Notes under the pieces: model-generated
The model's database searches: none
Told to the model about the DNA's origin: nothing
What the model saw: only the letters and a program-made list of their open reading frames with translations
NCBI GenBank assembly: GCA_963727485.1
Contig: CAVSGM010000011.1
Coordinates: 64,001 to 128,000, forward strand
Reading direction: 5' to 3'
Length of the DNA: 64,000 nucleotides
Source: an uncultured delta proteobacterium
GTDB taxonomy: Bacteria; Myxococcota; Myxococcia; SLRQ01
Shown here: positions 17,644 through 28,093 of the stretch, piece by piece
Layout: each line of letters opens with the position of its first letter
Numbering within the stretch: the stretch's first letter is position 1
Program-made: the position numbers and the translations under genes

Positions 17644-17697
17644 GGTGTAGAGGGTCCGTGTGGCCGGCAGGTGACGGGCGCATGCGGGGGCTGTGAC
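17644..17697 (-). promoter_or_regulatory. Pho-box-like direct repeats and -10 element upstream of pstS
   Basis: Minus strand GTCAC / CGCAT / GTCAC / GCCAC at exact 11-bp period, then 10 nt to TACACC. Confidence 0.65.
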
Positions 17698-17725
17698 GAT
17701 GCGCGGAGCGCGCCGCGGCGAGCGT

Positions 17726-17836
17726 CGCGCGCTCCACGGCAGCTGGGTGTCGCCCCCGAAGACCCCCGAGGCCTTCCAGGCCCTCGTCGCCCGGGCGGGG
17801 CCCACCTTCGAGGCCCTGGCGATCCGCCGGCATGAG
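17726..17836 (+). pseudogene. Remnant of RimJ/RimL-type GNAT acetyltransferase
   Basis: RALHGSWVSPPKTPEAFQALVAR resembles the N-terminal LH.PWV.PP.T.EAF motif. Confidence 0.45.
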
Positions 17837-17893
17837 GGCCGACCCCGGGCGGGCGCCGGAGATCCTTCGGCCCCCTCGGGCGTAGGGGACCCC

Positions 17894-19240
17894 ATGCGTG
17901 CTCCTGTGCTCAAGGTGGCCCTCGCCCTCGCCGCTGCGCTCCTGCTCCCCGCGTCCGCCCGCGCCGCCGGGCCCGTGCCCGCCGACGGCTGCCCCACGGC
18001 GACGAAGGCGGGGCACTGGGCCCGGATCCCGCCGATGCCCGGCCGGTCGCCGCGGCCCGCGCGCGTCACCGGGGAACCGACCCAGCCGCCCTGGCGGACG
18101 GTCTTCGCCCTCGGCCGCCTCTACGTGTTCACCGCAGGGGGCCATGGCCTCGCCTTCGACCCCTGCCGGGGCGCGTGGGCCCGGTTCCCCTCGCCAACGA
18201 CCCCGGCGCCGCCGGCGCACGCCTCGCCGGATCCCGATCCCGCCCTCGACTCCGAGATGGCCCTGGCCCCCACGGCCTACTGGCACCTGGTCCCCGAGCT
18301 CCGGCGCTCCGCGGGCACCCGGGGCCACCCCCTGCAGGTCTTCGACGGGGCGGTGGTCAAGCTCCGTCGGCGCGTGCACCTCACCGCCGCCGGGGCGCCG
18401 GCACCCCGCGCGCCCCGAAGCTACGTCCTCGCCGCCGCCGGTGACCGGGTGATCGTCTGGGGTGGGCGCACCGCCTCCGGGCTGACCAACCGCGGCGCGG
18501 TCTTCGACGCGAAGACCCGGCGGTGGCGGCCGATGACCACCGCGGGCGCCCCGTCCCCCCGGGAGTCGGTGAGGGTGGTCTGGTGGACGGGGCGGCGCCT
18601 GGTGGTCTGGGGCGGCCGGGACGCGGCGGGCGCCCGCACCGACGGCGCCGCCTACGACCCGGTCCGGGACCGCTGGCGCGCCCTCCCCGCTGCCGGCGCG
18701 CCGACCACCCGGACGGTCCCTGGCGTCGCCGTGGCCTCCGGCCGTCGCCTCGTCGTCCTCCCGGCGCCCGGCGGCGACCCGGCGACCGGGGGGGTCTACG
18801 ATCGGGTGACGAACCGCTGGCGGCCGGTGGCGCCGCCCCAGGGGACATGGCCGGGGTACGAGACGCAGATCCACCGCGACGGCCCCCGGCGCCTGGTGTT
18901 CGCCGACGTCCAGAACCGGCGCCTCGAGGTCCTGGACCTGACGACCGGGCGGTGGACCGGGGTGCCCTTCGCCGGCGCCCACCTCTCCCCGCGGACGATG
19001 CCGGCGATCCACTGGACCGGGGCGCGCCTGGTGGTCTTCGGGGGCGTCGATCGGAAGATGGTGAGCCCCGGCGGCGGCTGCGGGGGACCAAGGCCCCCTG
19101 GCATGGGCTGCGACCCGGTGCCGCCCATCTTCCTCCGCGTCGTCCGCCGCGACGGGGCGATTTACCGCCCTCGACCCCCAGGTCGGGGGGCCGGCCGACC
19201 GGCAAAGCCTACGGCTGCACCTGGCTCTCCTCATAGGTGA
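17894..19240 (+). CDS. Secreted Kelch-like beta-propeller protein
   Basis: Signal peptide ...ASARA; repeats VIVWGG / LVVWGG / LVVFGG, YDP..DRWR, GAPSPR. Confidence 0.75.
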   Translation: MRAPVLKVALALAAALLLPASARAAGPVPADGCPTATKAGHWARIPPMPGRSPRPARVTGEPTQPPWRTVFALGRLYVFTAGGHGLAFDPCRGAWARFPSPTTPAPPAHASPDPDPALDSEMALAPTAYWHLVPELRRSAGTRGHPLQVFDGAVVKLRRRVHLTAAGAPAPRAPRSYVLAAAGDRVIVWGGRTASGLTNRGAVFDAKTRRWRPMTTAGAPSPRESVRVVWWTGRRLVVWGGRDAAGARTDGAAYDPVRDRWRALPAAGAPTTRTVPGVAVASGRRLVVLPAPGGDPATGGVYDRVTNRWRPVAPPQGTWPGYETQIHRDGPRRLVFADVQNRRLEVLDLTTGRWTGVPFAGAHLSPRTMPAIHWTGARLVVFGGVDRKMVSPGGGCGGPRPPGMGCDPVPPIFLRVVRRDGAIYRPRPPGRGAGRPAKPTAAPGSPHR

Positions 19241-20873
19241 TGGTGCAGGAGCGGAAGGCCTCGGACGAGCCGTCGAGGTTCACGTAGAAGAGGAGCCGGT
19301 GGGTGGCGTTGTCCATGCCGGCGGTGACGGTCTGCGACAGGGTCTGGGCCGCCGTGCTCTCGGTGGTCGTCCGCATCGAGGCCAGGATGCTGCCACTGCC
19401 CGCGTCGTCCGCGCTCCAGAAGAAGACCAGGCTCACCGATCCCGAGGGGTTGTTGTCGAAGACATGGCAGGTCAGGTTGGTGACGGTCACCCCGTTGGGG
19501 ACGTGGATGGGGCAGTAGAGGGTCCCGATGCCGGAGGTGACGTAGGCGTTCATGCCATTGCTGCTCACCGTGCCGCTGTGGACCTTGCAGTCCACCGGGG
19601 AGACGTTCAGGGTGCCCGTGACCGGCTGGGCGTAGCGATAGCGACCGTTCTGCACCATCACGTCGCCCTTGAAGTAGCCGGCGTAGCTGGTGCTGGTGCC
19701 GCCGGACGCCTGGGCCATGATGCCGTAGGCGTTCTGGCCACCGGACGCGAAGAAGTTCCCGCCGACGTTGGTGCCCGCCTTGGTGGCGACGCCGTCCACG
19801 CCGTAGGCGAAGCTGGAGCTGGCGTTGCCCGCCTGCCCGGTCACCCCGGCGGCGATGACCCCGCCCGAGGTGGCCGAGCCGGCGATGGCGGTCTCCGAGG
19901 CGGTGGTGCTGATGCCCGAGTTCGTCACCGAGAGGGCCGCGTTCTGACCCACCGAGCCGCTGGCGTTCCCGGTGACGGTCACCGCCAATCCGCCGCCGCT
20001 CCGGCCGTCCACGGTGAGCGGCCCGGTCATGCTGTCCCCGGCGACGTTCACGTAGCGCGGGTCCAGGGTGCTCCGGAGATCGGCGTTGGTGCGGGTGGTG
20101 TCGAGGTCGGCCTGGCAGCTCCAGCTCGACCCGCCCCACTTGGGCACCTGGCCGGTGGCGCACGAGAGGCTCGCCCGGGCCAGGGCGTTGACCGTGGGGT
20201 CGGTCTCGGAGGTGATCCCGGTGGCGTCGGCGGCGCAGCCCCAGCCGCCGGCGCCCGCCTTGAGCACCTGACCCGAGGCGCAGCTCATCAGCCCGATCCG
20301 GTTGTTCGCCGAGGCGTTCAGGGTCAGCGGCGAGGCGGTGGTGTAGGTGGTGTCGTCGTCGCCGTCGTCGAGGCCGGCGGGGCGGTTCTGGATGTCGGTC
20401 CAGTGGACCCCCTGACCCGAGGTCATCAGCTGGCTCGCCGGGATGCCCCCGACGCTGGCGGCGTCTCCGGCGTACTGGGCGTAGGCGGCGTAGGGGGTGG
20501 AGCCGAGGACCAGCCGCGGGCTCATCTCGGCGTCGGTGCCCACCTGGATGCCGAGGAAGGTCGCCGGGTCGTCCCGGAAGACCGAGAGATCGAGGGGCGT
20601 GTTCTGGCCCAGGTAGACGGTGAAGAAGCCATGGTCGACCATCACCGTCTGGGTCTCCTGGTAGACGGCCGTGCCGCCGGTGGCGGTGGTGTAGAGGCTG
20701 AGGGTGAGGTCGGTCTGGCCGTCGACGGGCTGGCCGGTGGCGTCCGTCAGGTAGCCCTGCACCGGGAGGAACGCCGGGGCGGTGCCGGGGGTCTGGGCGT
20801 GGGCGAGGGCCGGCGCCAGGGCGAGGCCGAGGGCCAGGACGAGCGCGGTCACGTGGGATCGGGTGCGGATCAT
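19209..20873 (-). CDS. Secreted phage-fibre-like adhesin, copy 2
   Basis: Signal ending AHA; N-domain VQGYLTD..GQP...LGSTPYAAYA; fibre-type motifs WTDIQNRP, ETDPTV, RYVNVAGDSMTG; RBS GGAG. Confidence 0.65.
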   Translation of the reverse strand: MIRTRSHVTALVLALGLALAPALAHAQTPGTAPAFLPVQGYLTDATGQPVDGQTDLTLSLYTTATGGTAVYQETQTVMVDHGFFTVYLGQNTPLDLSVFRDDPATFLGIQVGTDAEMSPRLVLGSTPYAAYAQYAGDAASVGGIPASQLMTSGQGVHWTDIQNRPAGLDDGDDDTTYTTASPLTLNASANNRIGLMSCASGQVLKAGAGGWGCAADATGITSETDPTVNALARASLSCATGQVPKWGGSSWSCQADLDTTRTNADLRSTLDPRYVNVAGDSMTGPLTVDGRSGGGLAVTVTGNASGSVGQNAALSVTNSGISTTASETAIAGSATSGGVIAAGVTGQAGNASSSFAYGVDGVATKAGTNVGGNFFASGGQNAYGIMAQASGGTSTSYAGYFKGDVMVQNGRYRYAQPVTGTLNVSPVDCKVHSGTVSSNGMNAYVTSGIGTLYCPIHVPNGVTVTNLTCHVFDNNPSGSVSLVFFWSADDAGSGSILASMRTTTESTAAQTLSQTVTAGMDNATHRLLFYVNLDGSSEAFRSCTITYEESQVQP

Positions 20874-20899
20874 GGGGATCTCCAGGGAAGCGAGGGGAT

Positions 20900-21271
20900 T
20901 CATCGGCCCGGGCTGGCGCCGGTGTTGAGCTGGTGGCTGCCGCCGCCGGTGTGGCCGGCGGGCTGGGGCGCGCCGACGCTGAAGCGGAGCCGGTAGTGGG
21001 TCGAGGCGGCGGTGCCGCTGCCACCGGTGAGCGAGGCCCCCGGGTGCAGGGGCTGCCCGGTGGCGCCGCCGTCGGTGACGCCACCGTCGGTCGTGCCGCC
21101 GTCGGTGACGCCACCGTCGATCGTGCCGCCGTCGCCACCGTCGGTCGTGCCGCCGTCGGTCACGGCACCGCCGCCACCGTCGGCCTGGGTGCCGCTGCCC
21201 TTCGTGGCGGGGCAGCCGGCGAGGGTGCCCGCCGCGAAGAGGGCGAGCAGCCAGTGGGTCCTGCGAGTCAT
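20900..21271 (-). CDS. Small lipoprotein with TDGG repeats, copy 2
   Basis: Lipobox LAGC; (V/T)TDGG repeats; C-terminal GGSG.AASTHYRL..VGAPQP domain; RBS AGGAGG. Confidence 0.8.
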   Translation of the reverse strand: MTRRTHWLLALFAAGTLAGCPATKGSGTQADGGGGAVTDGGTTDGGDGGTIDGGVTDGGTTDGGVTDGGATGQPLHPGASLTGGSGTAASTHYRLRFSVGAPQPAGHTGGGSHQLNTGASPGR

Positions 21272-21452
21272 CGACACCTCCTGCGTGGGTCGTCCGTGGC
21301 GACGCGCCACGACGTTCGCGGACCCTCGCAGGGCGGCGTCAACGCGCCGTCAAAGGCGTCCGCGCCGCCCCTGGGTGCCCTCCGCTCCGGGGCCCACCCC
21401 ACCTTGTGGCACCGCCGCCCCGTGCCTACCGCTTGCTCCAAGGAGGCAACCC

Positions 21453-21827
21453 ATGGACGTACAGACGACCCAGCTCGACACCAACGCCCTGCTCACCCAG
21501 TACCTCAACGTGGTCAACCGGGCGATCCGGTCCCACAAGGACAAGGTGCCCTTCAAGCAGATCCTCGACGTCGCCCAGAAGGCGCTCGCCGGGAAGCGCT
21601 TCGGGGTGGCGGTCTACAAGACCGACCCCGACAAGCCCCATGACTACTTCACCCTCGTCTGGCGCGACGGGGGCCTGGCCATCGCCGACCATGGGAAGAA
21701 GGACGTGGACCTCGCCTGGCGGGTGAAGGAGGACCACCTCACCAACGTGGTCACCAAGCCCGAGCCCTTCGTCGACAACCCGGCGCGCCTGGACCTCGAC
21801 TGGCTGAAGACCCGCCTCGGGCTCTAG
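21453..21827 (+). CDS. Hypothetical protein, possibly SCP2-like fold
   Basis: Strong RBS AAGGAGG, good codon bias; fold is a guess. Confidence 0.7.
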   Translation: MDVQTTQLDTNALLTQYLNVVNRAIRSHKDKVPFKQILDVAQKALAGKRFGVAVYKTDPDKPHDYFTLVWRDGGLAIADHGKKDVDLAWRVKEDHLTNVVTKPEPFVDNPARLDLDWLKTRLGL

Positions 21828-23497
21828 GGGAGCACCTCGGTCGCCTGGTAGGTGAACACGCAGGCGCGGAACTCCATGTTGGTGTTGAAGCTGACACGGA
21901 TGCTGAGCCGCTGGGTCGTGTTGTCCTGAAACAGGTTCAGGGCCGCCGACAGCGTCTGGACCGAGGCGCTGTTGGTGGTCGCGGTCAGCGTCGTCACCGG
22001 GCTCGCGGAGCCGGCGCTGATCGAGGCCTTGCCGAGGACCACGCTAAGGTTGTCGGAGCCGTTGTTGTCGATGACGGTGCAGGTCATGTGGGTGAGCGTC
22101 ACACCGCTGGGGACGCTGACGGGGCAGAGGATGACTGCCGAGCCGGCGGTGTCGTAGATGGTCGCCCCGCCGTACCAGGGCGGGATCCCTCCGCCATAGG
22201 CCTCGGTCACGCAGTTCGGCGGTGAGACGACCACGCTGCCGGTGACCGGCGCGGCGTAGCGGTAGCGCCCGTTCGACACCATCACGTCGCCCCGGAAGTA
22301 GCCGGCGTAGTTGACGTTGGAGCCCCCGACCGCCTGGGCCATGATGCCGTAGGCGTTGGTGCCCCCGGACGCCAGGAAGCTCCCGCCGATGTTGTTGGCC
22401 GCCTTGCTCGCCACGCCCTCCACCGCGTAGGCGTAGGCCGAGGCGGCGCTCCCGGCCTTCCCGACCAAGGCGGAGGCGAGGGCCCCGCCCGAGGTGGCGT
22501 CGGCGGCGATGGCGGTCTCCGAGGCGGTGGTGCTGGTGCTCTGGTTCACCACCGAGAGGGCCGCGTTCTGCCCCAGCGCGCCGCTCCCGTCCCCGGTGAC
22601 GGTGACCGCCGAGGTCCCGCTCCCGGTGGTGTCCACGGCGAGGGCGCCGGTCATGGCGTCTCCGGTGACGTTGACGTAGCGCGGATCGAGGGTGCTCTGG
22701 AGGTCGGCGTTGGTGCGGGTGGTGTCCAGGTCGTTCTGGCAGCTCCAGCTCGAGCCGCCCCACTTGGGTACCTGGCCCGCGGCGCAGGAGAGGCTCGCCT
22801 TGGCCAGGGCATTGACCGTGGGATCGGTCTCGGTGGTCAGCCCGCTGACATCGGCGGCGCAGCCCCAGCCGCCGGAGGTGGCCTTGAGGACCTGGCCCGA
22901 GGCGCAGCTCATCAGCCCGATCCGGTTGCCCGCCGTGGCGTCCAGGGTGAGCGGCGCGCCGGTGGTGTAGGTGGTGTCGTCGTCCCCGTCGTCGAGGCCG
23001 GCGGGGCGGTTCTGGATGTCGGTCCAGTTCACCCCCTGGCCCACCTTCTGGAGCTGGCTGGCGGGGATGCCGCCGACGCTCGCCGCATCCCCGGCGTACT
23101 GCGCGAAGGCGGCGTAGGGCGTGGTGCCCAGGACCAGGCGCGGGGACATCTGGGCATCGGTGCCCACCTGGACGCCGAGGAAGAGCTGGCCGTGGTCGCG
23201 GAAGAGGGACAGGTCCAGGGGCCAGTTCTGGCCGAGGTAGAGGGTGAAGAACCCGTGGTCCACCATCACCGTCTGGGTCTCCTGGTAGAGGACGCTGCCG
23301 GCGATGGCCGTGGCGTAGAGGCTGAGGGTGAGGTCGGTCTGGCCGTCGATGGGCTGGCCCGCGGCGTCGGTGAGGAAGCCCTGCACCGGGAGGAACGCCG
23401 GGGCGGTGCCCGCGCTCTGGGCCTTCGCGAGGGCGGGGGTCAGGACCAGGCCGAGGGCCACGACGGCGGCGACGAAGGGAGCGCGAGTGGGGATCAT
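21824..23497 (-). CDS. Secreted phage-fibre-like adhesin, copy 1
   Basis: Paralogue of 19209-20873 with a closely similar N-terminal three quarters and a divergent C-terminus. Confidence 0.65.
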   Translation of the reverse strand: MIPTRAPFVAAVVALGLVLTPALAKAQSAGTAPAFLPVQGFLTDAAGQPIDGQTDLTLSLYATAIAGSVLYQETQTVMVDHGFFTLYLGQNWPLDLSLFRDHGQLFLGVQVGTDAQMSPRLVLGTTPYAAFAQYAGDAASVGGIPASQLQKVGQGVNWTDIQNRPAGLDDGDDDTTYTTGAPLTLDATAGNRIGLMSCASGQVLKATSGGWGCAADVSGLTTETDPTVNALAKASLSCAAGQVPKWGGSSWSCQNDLDTTRTNADLQSTLDPRYVNVTGDAMTGALAVDTTGSGTSAVTVTGDGSGALGQNAALSVVNQSTSTTASETAIAADATSGGALASALVGKAGSAASAYAYAVEGVASKAANNIGGSFLASGGTNAYGIMAQAVGGSNVNYAGYFRGDVMVSNGRYRYAAPVTGSVVVSPPNCVTEAYGGGIPPWYGGATIYDTAGSAVILCPVSVPSGVTLTHMTCTVIDNNGSDNLSVVLGKASISAGSASPVTTLTATTNSASVQTLSAALNLFQDNTTQRLSIRVSFNTNMEFRACVFTYQATEVLP

Positions 23498-23523
23498 GCG
23501 GGTCTCCGGGGGAGCGAGCGGGG

Positions 23524-23916
23524 TCATCGGCCGGGGCTGGCGCCGGTGGTGATCTGGTGGGTGCCGCCGCGGGTGCGGCCGGCGGGCTGGGGCGCGCCGA
23601 CGTTGAGGTGGAGCCGGTAGTGGGTCGAGGCGGCGGCACCGCTGCCGCCGGTGAGGGAGGCGCCCGGGTGCATCGGCTGGCCGGGCGTGCCGGCGTCGGT
23701 GGCGCCCCCGCCATCGGGGCTCCCACCGTCGGCGACCGGGCCGCCGTCCGTCGTGCCCCCATCGGTGCTGCCGCCGCCGTCCGCGCCCGTGCTGCCGCCA
23801 TCGGTGACGCCTCCGCCACCGCCGTCAGCGTGGGTGCCGACGCCCGAGGTGGCGGGGCAGCCGGCGAGCGCACCGACGGCCACCAGCGCGAGCAGAAAGC
23901 AGGTCCAGCGAGTCAT
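23524..23916 (-). CDS. Small lipoprotein with TDGG repeats, copy 1
   Basis: Lipobox LAGC; DGG repeats; same C-terminal domain as 20900-21271. Confidence 0.8.
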   Translation of the reverse strand: MTRWTCFLLALVAVGALAGCPATSGVGTHADGGGGGVTDGGSTGADGGGSTDGGTTDGGPVADGGSPDGGGATDAGTPGQPMHPGASLTGGSGAAASTHYRLHLNVGAPQPAGRTRGGTHQITTGASPGR

Positions 23917-24083
23917 GGACATCTCCTTCCCTGGATGTCCGCGGCGAAGGGCCGCGACCGTGACCCAATCCATAGGAAGACCGTCAGGCCCTCGTCAAAC
24001 CCCAGACCGGGGGACCTCGAGGTCACCTGGCCCGGGCGCCAGGGGGCTTGACCGGAGGCCGATCGCCGGCCGAACCTCGAACG

Positions 24084-25418
24084 ATGATCGACCAGCGCGC
24101 CGGGGGGCTGGTGGCCATCCTGCTGCCCTGGCTGGGCCTGGCGGTGGCGCCGGGTCTGGCCGAGCCCTTCTCCGCCCCCAAGGCCTGGGGCCTGATGGGG
24201 GCCGCCGTCGTGGGCCTGGGGATCCTCCTGGTCCGGCGCGATGCCGGAGCCCGAGGCGACCCGGCCGGCCCCGGGGCGCCGCGGATCCTGGTGGCCCTGG
24301 TTCTCGCCTGGATCGCCAGCGCCGCCCTGGCCACGGTCACCGGCGGCGCCGCCCGCCCGGAGGCGCTCCTCCGGATCCTCGCCGCCGGGGTCCTGCTCCT
24401 GGCGCTCCTCGCCGCGCCCCCGGACCCGCGCGGGGTCCTCGGTGTGGCCTCGGCCACCGGTGTGGCCGTCGCCGCGGTGGTCCTCCTCCAGGCCGCCGGG
24501 TGGGATCCCTTCGCCGCCCTGGGCCTCACCCCGGCGGTGGCCGGGGCCCGGATGCGCCTCTACGGCACCCTGGGGAACCCCGACTTCGTCGCCGGCTTCC
24601 TCGCCGCCACCGCCTGCGCCACCGCCGGGCGCCTGGCCCTCGTGGGCGCCGGGGATCCGCGCCGACGCCTCCGCCGCGCCCTCGGCGCCGTGGCCCTCAC
24701 CGTCGAGCTCGTGGCCCTGGGGCGCCTCGGGTCCCTGGCGACGCTCCTCTCCGTCCTCGGGGCCGGAGCGGTGGTCGCCCTCGCCGGGGGTCGCCGGGCC
24801 CGGCGCCTGGCGCTCGGCCTCGGGGCCGTGGCGCTCCTGGTGGTCGCCGTCGGCGCCCGGCACCGTACCCCGTCGCGAACCGTCGACGGACGCCTCTACC
24901 TCTGGTCCGTGACCGTGCCCCACCTCGCCGGCGCGCCGCTGCTCGGCCACGGCCCCGGGGCCTTCGCCGCCCTCTGGCCCGGGTGGGAGGCGGCGCGGTG
25001 GCGGGCCCACCCGTCCGCCGCCAATCGCCCCTTCGCCGGCAACGAGCGCCACGCCCACGCCGACTGGCTCGAGACCCTCGTCGACACCGGCGCCCTCGGC
25101 CTCCTCGCCCTCGTCGGCCTCCTCGCCGTGGCGCTCTTCCGGGGCCTGCGCCACGGCCGGGTGGAGCCGGCGCGCCTCGCCGCCGCCGCGGGCCTGGCCT
25201 CGATCGTGGCCCGGAGCCTGGTGGACTTCCCCTTCCAGCGCCCGGCAGAGCTGGGCCTCGCCCTCGTCCTGGCGGCGGTCGCCGCCGCGCCCTTTCCCCT
25301 CCACAGAGCGGAGCCCATCCCATGTCCCCAAGCCCCCGTCCCCTCGCCGCCGTCCTCCGTTTCCTTGGCCGCTCACCCGCCCGGGCCGCGGCCCTCGCCG
25401 GTGGCGTCCTCGCCCTGA
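24084..25418 (+). CDS. O-antigen ligase (Wzy_C) family membrane protein
   Basis: YGTLGNPDF, GRLYLW, PLLGHGPGAF, HAHADWLETLVDTG, SLVDFPFQRP. Confidence 0.85.
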   Translation: MIDQRAGGLVAILLPWLGLAVAPGLAEPFSAPKAWGLMGAAVVGLGILLVRRDAGARGDPAGPGAPRILVALVLAWIASAALATVTGGAARPEALLRILAAGVLLLALLAAPPDPRGVLGVASATGVAVAAVVLLQAAGWDPFAALGLTPAVAGARMRLYGTLGNPDFVAGFLAATACATAGRLALVGAGDPRRRLRRALGAVALTVELVALGRLGSLATLLSVLGAGAVVALAGGRRARRLALGLGAVALLVVAVGARHRTPSRTVDGRLYLWSVTVPHLAGAPLLGHGPGAFAALWPGWEAARWRAHPSAANRPFAGNERHAHADWLETLVDTGALGLLALVGLLAVALFRGLRHGRVEPARLAAAAGLASIVARSLVDFPFQRPAELGLALVLAAVAAAPFPLHRAEPIPCPQAPVPSPPSSVSLAAHPPGPRPSPVASSP

Positions 25419-27178: not shown

Positions 27179-28093
27179 ATGAAGCGCATCTCCCTGGGCC
27201 TGGCGGTCCTCCTCTGCTCCTTCACCCTGGCCACGGCCTGCAACCAGCCCACCGACACCGGCAACGGCGGCGGGACGGACGGCGGCACCACCGGCGGCAC
27301 CACCGACGGCGGGACCACCGGCGGCACCACCGACGGCGGGACCACCGGGGGCACCACCGATGGCGGCACCACCGGGGGCACCGACGGCGGCACCACCGCC
27401 ACCCCGGGCACCCTCACCGTGAACTCCTCGGGGAACGCGCTGCCGGGGGCCTGGATGGTCTCCGACGCCACCGTCCTCGCCAGCGACGGCTCCGGCGCCG
27501 GCGCCACCGACCACCAGGACGTCCTGGTGACCCTCAACGTCGCCACCACCGTCAACGCCAGCGCCAACTGCGCCATCCCCTACAAGACCTACTGCGACAG
27601 CTTCACCGTCCAGGACGCCAGCGGGAACCAGGTGGTCGTCGACGACTACAGCTTCCTCGGGACCCACCCGGCCTGCACCATGCCCCCTGCGGACGGCACC
27701 AGCCTCACCACCGTCACCGGCACCTGGGAGGCCCACTACGACTCGACGCTCAAGAAGACCACCTGGGCCATCGCCCTGGCGGACTGCTCGGGCATCGGGC
27801 AGGGCACCGCCTACAGCGGCTCCAACCAGGCGCCCCTCTCCCAGGACATCGCGAACCTCAAGGCCAACGGGGGGCTCCAGGACGGGCCCAGCGGCTCGGT
27901 GAGCGGGGTGGTCATCGCCGCCTGGTCGGCGAAGACCGCCTGGGGCTTCACCATGGAGGACCCCGACGGCGGGGCCGCCATCACCGTGAAGTGGAGCAGC
28001 TCCTCGTCGAGCACCGCCACCGAGCCCGCGGTGGGCGACGACGTGACCGTGACCGGCACCGTGGTCGCGGTGGCCAACGAGATCAAGCTCTAG
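27179..28093 (+). CDS. Lipoprotein with TDGGTTGG repeat linker and OB-fold-like domains
   Basis: Lipobox ATAC; 27-nt repeats about 27263-27398; PAVGDDVTVTGTV. Confidence 0.75.
   Translation: MKRISLGLAVLLCSFTLATACNQPTDTGNGGGTDGGTTGGTTDGGTTGGTTDGGTTGGTTDGGTTGGTDGGTTATPGTLTVNSSGNALPGAWMVSDATVLASDGSGAGATDHQDVLVTLNVATTVNASANCAIPYKTYCDSFTVQDASGNQVVVDDYSFLGTHPACTMPPADGTSLTTVTGTWEAHYDSTLKKTTWAIALADCSGIGQGTAYSGSNQAPLSQDIANLKANGGLQDGPSGSVSGVVIAAWSAKTAWGFTMEDPDGGAAITVKWSSSSSSTATEPAVGDDVTVTGTVVAVANEIKL

Follow-up and report, generated by a model that had tools for sequence, protein, structure and literature searches.

The 64,000-nucleotide stretch analyzed here (the window) comes from an uncultured delta proteobacterium of the Myxococcota (contig CAVSGM010000011.1, positions 64,001 to 128,000) and contains two tandem gene pairs on its minus strand, each encoding a small lipoprotein followed by a ~555-residue fibre protein. 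The C-terminal ~50 residues of the lipoprotein, hereafter called the partner domain, probably constitute a docking tether which holds the fibre at its base and fastens it to whichever surface anchor the lineage has. This reading, which rests on comparison of sequences across several phyla, is favored because only the fibre N-terminal domain (N-domain) and the partner domain are constant from pair to pair and because the anchor is always carried by the partner, while the anchors differ in kind, as do the passenger domains and the order of the genes. The N-domain is homologous to that of the mosaic adhesive trimer (MAT) fibres, defined in Bdellovibrio (PMC10769870), where it is predicted to bind a surface element that has yet to be named.

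Coupling of the partner domain to the fibre N-domain

The partner domain contains two S-x-x-Y/H-x-L repeats and has no Pfam family; the complete lipoproteins A and B of the window match nothing in Pfam or NCBIfam. Word-index searches with its sequence retrieved few proteins (2 and 10). When the DNA around N-domain matches was read in the window's phylum, including 110 of the 325 matches from a phylum-wide search, the open reading frames (ORFs) upstream of N-domain genes ranged from ~60 to 570 aa and shared a common ending, namely the S-x-x-Y/H-x-L repeat motif. A leave-one-genome-out test was carried out with a hidden Markov model (HMM) on a set from which ten loci (duplicates or weak matches) had been removed beforehand, together with five genes with short flanks. 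At a score of at least 10 bits, the motif ended the directly upstream ORF of 58 of 125 N-domain genes (39 of 63 genomes) versus 9 of 4,291 other ORF ends, in a test which is partly circular as its training rows were chosen by eye from upstream ORFs. Three of these nine were duplicates of true partners and two were partner-like copies in fibre loci; seven partners outside the hand-picked rows were also recovered. Furthermore, an HMM trained without the genome under study placed, in a blind genome-wide scan, intact partners at ranks 1, 2, 3 and 6 of 41,464 six-frame segments; four of the five N-domain genes of the genome are immediately preceded by one of these partners.

Co-occurrence of the two domains across genomes, which the earlier note had proposed as a test of their association, was found in several phyla. 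Partner and N-domain profiles were run on the same genome samples, with the seed genome excluded; Fisher values for these comparisons overstate the association, since related genomes are not independent. In Chloroflexota, 10 of 11 partner-positive genomes were N-positive (13 of 100 genomes being N-positive), and 22 of 25 partner matches were located within 10 kb of an N-domain gene on the same strand, the three misses lying at most 1.3 kb from a contig start. In a second phylum, that of genome G305, all 27 partner-positive genomes were N-positive (44 of 80 overall) and 39 of 40 partner matches were within 10 kb of an N-domain gene. For Patescibacteria, which contributed no row to the partner training alignment, the corresponding values were 12 of 16 genomes (39 of 120 N-positive) and 9 of 17 matches. 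Among metagenome loci picked by their N-domain alone, a partner was present in 24 of 79, with 25 of 25 matches on the same strand, and Pseudomonadota yielded a partner match in just 4 of 251 genomes. The partner gene precedes the fibre gene in the window's phylum and often follows it elsewhere.

Predicted lineage-specific anchors on the partner

The earlier note had placed the membrane anchor on the lipoprotein, an assignment borne out in the window's phylum, where a lipobox rule recognized 50 of 62 partner ORFs versus 1 of 64 fibre leaders. Outside this phylum, a signal-like leader usually precedes the partner domain, and the C-terminus is formed by a tail particular to the lineage. In the phylum of G305 and similarly labelled loci (ORFs with masked letters excluded), a type IX secretion system (T9SS) type A sorting domain (TIGR04183, scoring over its cut-off) forms the C-terminus in 10 of 10 complete partners and in 0 of 23 complete fibres. 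In Chloroflexota, 21 of 25 partners and 0 of 26 fibres end in a Y/F-L-P-L-V tail, which we take to be a sorting signal and of which a literature search found no report. In Patescibacteria, the partner domain forms the N-terminus of proteins of 211-371 aa, 7 of 8 of which match the PamT model NF058579 below its cut-off, and the gene clusters around them also contain genes resembling Pam pilins and a large fibre gene with the N-domain. Other endings were also observed: gammaproteobacterial partners have a C-terminal F-x-D/S-G-F-E/Q motif, possibly another sorting tail, and, in place of the usual tail, three partners from the Chloroflexota sample have a different C-terminal domain of ~250 aa (CAP-like by eye). 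As judged from these signals, the predicted anchoring signal of each lineage is on the partner and not on the fibre. The system is broader than the lipid-anchored one proposed in the earlier note: the lipid anchor is the version of the window's lineage, and other lineages would use other anchors.

It could be argued that the partner binds the N-domain transiently, as an export escort or a trimerization chaperone lending its sorting signal to a fibre which is then released or anchored otherwise. The presence of export and sorting tails on the partner and their absence from the fibre would be explained by such a role, with which the many fibre genes devoid of a neighbouring partner and the lack of an S74 chaperone in the window fibres are also consistent. 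However, the partner also adjoins fibres with S74-type, coiled-coil-like C-termini (by eye), and it is fused to long linkers, to passenger domains and, in Patescibacteria, to a predicted structural pilin, which is more in keeping with a lasting tether than with a catalyst. An escort appears rather unlikely.

Under the docking tether, both proteins would be exported by Sec and the two-hairpin domain of the partner would bind the conserved N-terminal β-sandwich of the fibre by adding β-strands. Modeled alone, the partner domain is predicted as two β-hairpins that do not pack into a compact fold (pLDDT 72.9 in the best model and 49-58 in the others, pTM 0.37), which would fit strand addition to the fibre N-domain; a fold search with this model matched nothing. 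The lipid and the flexible linker of the lipoprotein would then tether the fibre to the membrane, the complex being displayed at the cell surface where the diverging tips may bind different targets. The module would act likewise in other lineages, where it would connect the fibre to the T9SS-A-type tail, to the C-terminal motif of Chloroflexota or, on the Pam pili of Patescibacteria, to the PamT-like predicted tip pilin.

Covariation and points that weigh against docking

A signal of contact between the two domains was sought by mutual information on 180 N-domain/partner pairs (Neff 158). The top signal links position 9 of the N-domain (N9) to partner position 54 (z 8.9, above all 150 within-group shuffles), Tyr being paired with Phe/Tyr in 89 of the 180 pairs and Val with Pro in 13. 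Several observations weigh against docking, of which the first concerns this signal: it was reached in 7 of 60 shuffles within 35 sequence clusters, and the intra-domain control was weak too. As cluster-level shuffling largely reproduces the peak, co-inheritance can explain the covariation. In addition, an upstream partner is missing for 67 of the 125 N-domain genes of the window's phylum, above all where a genome has many fibres (partners at 0 of 11 genes in G048 and 2 of 16 in G248), and 27 of the 39 N-positive Patescibacteria genomes gave no partner match. These unpartnered genes and genomes imply that one partner serves many fibres, that divergent partners were missed by the HMM or that other anchors are used. 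Five partner-like matches in three Pseudomonadota genomes have no N-domain within their 1.5-kb flanks (the N-domain was not searched genome-wide there). Finally, natural fusions of the two domains were not found among 120 N-domain proteins and the fetched loci, and no gene for outer-membrane export was seen repeatedly near the pairs.

Some of these data would agree with an absence of contact, the two products being co-expressed surface proteins of one operon, with a partner that binds a glycan, the S-layer or itself and a coupling due to shared function and co-transfer. Gene linkage alone accounts for the correlated distances of N-domains and partners (Mantel rho 0.34) and for most of the covariation, and a few partner-like matches are, as mentioned above, devoid of a nearby N-domain. 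Nevertheless, the coupling persists when the genes change order, when one type of anchor replaces another and when every passenger domain differs, with only the two domains constant, and there is no third conserved gene, the most widespread neighbour linking 5 of 42 genomes. Independent proteins of a common operon are, in our view, distinctly improbable.

Relationship of the fibres to MAT proteins and to phages

The resemblance of the N-domain to Bdellovibrio MAT fibres, proposed earlier from motifs, was corroborated by NF053851 (Bdello_MAT_N), which matches 56 of 60 aligned N-domains at E ≤ 0.01 (best 2e-12). The window fibres score 22.9 and 23.9 bits (E 3e-5 to 6e-5) and their best paralogue 40.9 against a curated cut-off of 60, which no match anywhere in the genome exceeds; they are hence MAT-like rather than filed as members of the family. 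The AlphaFold2 model of the N-domain is a β-sandwich (pLDDT 83, pTM 0.67) for which Foldseek returned nothing at E ≤ 1e-3, the best VIA Z of 7.3 being at the level of common β-sandwiches. Sequence searches of the PDB gave no match with the N-domain profile and one match at chance level with fibre B, and the ESM Atlas contained only unnamed clusters, under 0.9. The Pfam domains found in N-domain relatives are S74, collagen, C1q and tail collar, all known from trimeric fibres, and the C-terminal domains are varied. The window fibres have the mosaic layout of MATs, with a conserved base (81-84% identity between copies) and a diversified tip (38%). They are predicted to be MAT-like adhesive fibres, probably trimeric, the trimer being supported indirectly by the domains of these relatives and by a weak tail-fibre match in PHROGs.

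Within the window's phylum, 118 of 301 genomes contain the N-domain, whose best named matches suggest that the genome under study is that of a myxobacterium. Among the best 80 of 422 confirmed stretches, named records belong to Chloroflexota, Planctomycetota, Armatimonadota, Omnitrophota, Calditrichota, Gemmatimonadota, Gammaproteobacteria and Patescibacteria. Expansions of the scale known in Bdellovibrio also occur outside this genus, with 22 N-domain matches in genome G048 and 30 in G442.

Since the fibres recall phage proteins, the cassette could be a remnant of a prophage, a tailocin or a contractile injection system, as might be suggested by the single weak tail-fibre match in PHROGs (fibre residues 252-305, E 5e-5 and 3e-4). 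Such an origin is hardly credible and largely refuted. Signal-like leaders and lipoboxes are present, and searches with nearly the same pattern found one N-domain locus in viral contigs versus the 422 confirmed stretches in genome contigs. The earlier note had seen neither S74 nor phage genes, and indeed Pfam gave no match, S74 included, in any of the four cassette proteins, and no phage structural gene was recognized among the flanking ORFs read, the scanned ones being Kelch and O-antigen ligase-like. Lastly, the N-domain and shaft appear to be under purifying selection (dN/dS ~0.34).

Organization of the two cassettes

The duplication of a small lipoprotein and a ~555-aa protein, reported in the earlier note, was confirmed, with lipoproteins of 123-130 aa and fibres of 554-557 aa. 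The features of the window are as follows.

23524..23916, minus strand: lipoprotein A, 130 aa, with lipobox LAGC, a Gly/Asp/Thr linker and the C-terminal docking-candidate domain
23527..23700, minus strand: partner domain A (last 58 aa of lipoprotein A), predicted β-hairpin pair with the twofold S-x-x-Y/H-x-L repeat, from alignment and model
21824..23497, minus strand: fibre A, 557 aa from the second ATG or 567 aa from the ATG at 23527, with signal-like leader, MAT-like N-domain, shaft and variable tip
23084..23410, minus strand: fibre A N-domain, predicted β-sandwich, homologous to NF053851 Bdello_MAT_N below cut-off
21827..22237, minus strand: fibre A variable tip, ~135 aa, with 4 conserved Cys
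20900..21271, minus strand: lipoprotein B, 123 aa, same layout as lipoprotein A, partner domain at ~20903-21076
19209..20873, minus strand: fibre B, 554 aa, or 564 aa from the ATG at 20903
20460..20789, minus strand: fibre B N-domain
19212..19613, minus strand: fibre B variable tip, 38% identity to the tip of fibre A

In both copies, the lipoprotein gene and the fibre ORF share 4 nt, the stop of the former overlapping an in-frame ATG of the latter, which suggests translational coupling of the two genes. Lipoproteins A and B have the lipobox LAGC behind a hydrophobic stretch, as expected for bacterial lipoproteins under a motif rule. The DGG linker is not specific to these proteins, a lipobox-like motif with such a linker being found in 63 six-frame segments of the genome; one further lipoprotein of the window (27179-28093, minus strand) has a long TDGG linker and no partner domain.

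Divergence between copies and the other cassettes of the genome

The partner domains of lipoproteins A and B, initially described as nearly identical, are close, with 78-80% identity only. The two fibres share 67% identity over their full length. The divergence is not confined to the last ~130 aa, as first thought, but forms a gradient which is steepest there: identity is 81% in the N-domain, 84% in the neck and shaft, already 67% in residues 289-420 and 38% in the tip (residues 421-554). As the earlier note had stated for the tips, the cysteine pattern is kept, all eight Cys being retained. The comparison of copies that this note had advised gave dN/dS values (Nei-Gojobori) of ~0.34 for the N-domain and shaft, 1.0 for residues 289-420 and ~1.3 for the tip. 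Since dS is similar in the tip (0.43) and the N-domain (0.35), the tips appear to have diverged in place rather than to have been swapped in. The tip value suggests positive selection, and does no more than suggest it, as dS is likely underestimated in a genome of 73% GC.

Besides the two real copies of the window, three further pairs, one of them degenerate, were found elsewhere in the genome, bringing the total to five N-domain genes, each located behind a lipoprotein-like ORF. The third cassette (contig C2:2242-3327) adjoins a transposase-like ORF (by eye). Another (contig C2:1618887-1620861) represents a second subfamily, in which N-domain and partner are each nearer to those of other genomes than to the window copies. 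In the fifth, degenerate cassette (contig C1:203262-204323), the lipoprotein has lost most of the partner domain and the fibre most of its shaft and tip, as if both had decayed together.

An unrelated ORF of 124 aa (21453-21827, plus strand), overlooked earlier, lies between the cassettes, its stop overlapping the end of fibre A; it has no match in Pfam, PHROGs or NCBIfam and may resemble an SCP2-like fold. A Kelch β-propeller gene (17693-19240, plus strand) converges on fibre B with overlapping ends. Divergent from cassette A is an O-antigen ligase-like (Wzy_C) gene (24048-25418, plus strand), which does not recur beside other pairs and whose product might glycosylate the Thr/Ser-rich cassette proteins.

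Comparison with known systems and implications

The fibre itself is not undescribed, contrary to the novelty first assumed for the whole system, because the supplement of PMC10769870 already lists MAT homologues from bacteria other than Bdellovibrio, one of them a Myxococcales protein. In contrast, the partner domain appears to be undescribed: the word lipoprotein is absent from the main text and searched supplements of PMC10769870, the available part of a 2026 review (PMC13689555) names no MAT anchor, and a literature search, whose scope excluded most subscription papers, found no description of the lipoprotein/fibre pair. Like the non-S74 subfamily of Bdellovibrio MATs, the window fibres are secreted proteins with a homologous N-domain, a repeat shaft, a variable tip and several paralogues per genome. 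They differ in their length (~555 versus ~1,000 aa), in their scores below the NF053851 cut-off and in their pairing with a dedicated lipoprotein, not described in the sections of PMC10769870 available. Unlike the S74 subfamily, they have no C-terminal S74 chaperone/peptidase according to Pfam.

PamT is described in PMC13278184 as a truncated-Ig tip pilin, predicted at the Pam pilus tip, and a tail fibre-like gene is reported there as a constant neighbour of pam operons, the two not being linked in the part of the paper available, which also states no role for the N-terminal segment of PamT. For 6 of 11 relatives from other phyla, the partner domain aligns with the first ~80 positions of NF058579, all matches being far below the cut-off of 240, and PamT-like genes are found near N-domain fibre genes. 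The four intact lipoproteins of the genome differ in having no NF058579 match (nor any NCBIfam match), those of the window having no pilin domain.

In cohesin-dockerin systems and lipoprotein-anchored type V pili, a protein fixed to the cell bears a small binding module, through which a second protein with its own function is displayed. The likeness is one of concept, with no sequence or fold match found, and here one module would be combined with four unrelated anchors. YadA-type trimeric autotransporter adhesins are also trimeric fibres with a variable distal head, but they carry their own C-terminal β-barrel anchor, whereas the window fibres have their tip at the C-terminus, show no barrel domain in Pfam or NCBIfam and have their predicted anchor on another protein.

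A broader proposal can be put forward, which we judge a little more likely to fail than to hold: the ~50-aa domain would be a universal docking module for MAT-type fibres, grafted in each phylum onto its own anchor, and would represent the MAT surface element, with Patescibacteria carrying giant MAT-like host-recognition fibres on their pilus tips via PamT. This proposal predicts that the partner module also anchors the Bdellovibrio MATs. How MATs are attached to the cell is a question posed in PMC10769870, for which the pair provides a concrete candidate, small and expressible (domains of ~110 and ~50 aa). The present data extend MAT-like display to many phyla. They also offer a candidate mechanism for the tail fibre-like gene beside pam operons and hence for host recognition by Patescibacteria, and a portable two-part tether of this kind could be used for surface display.

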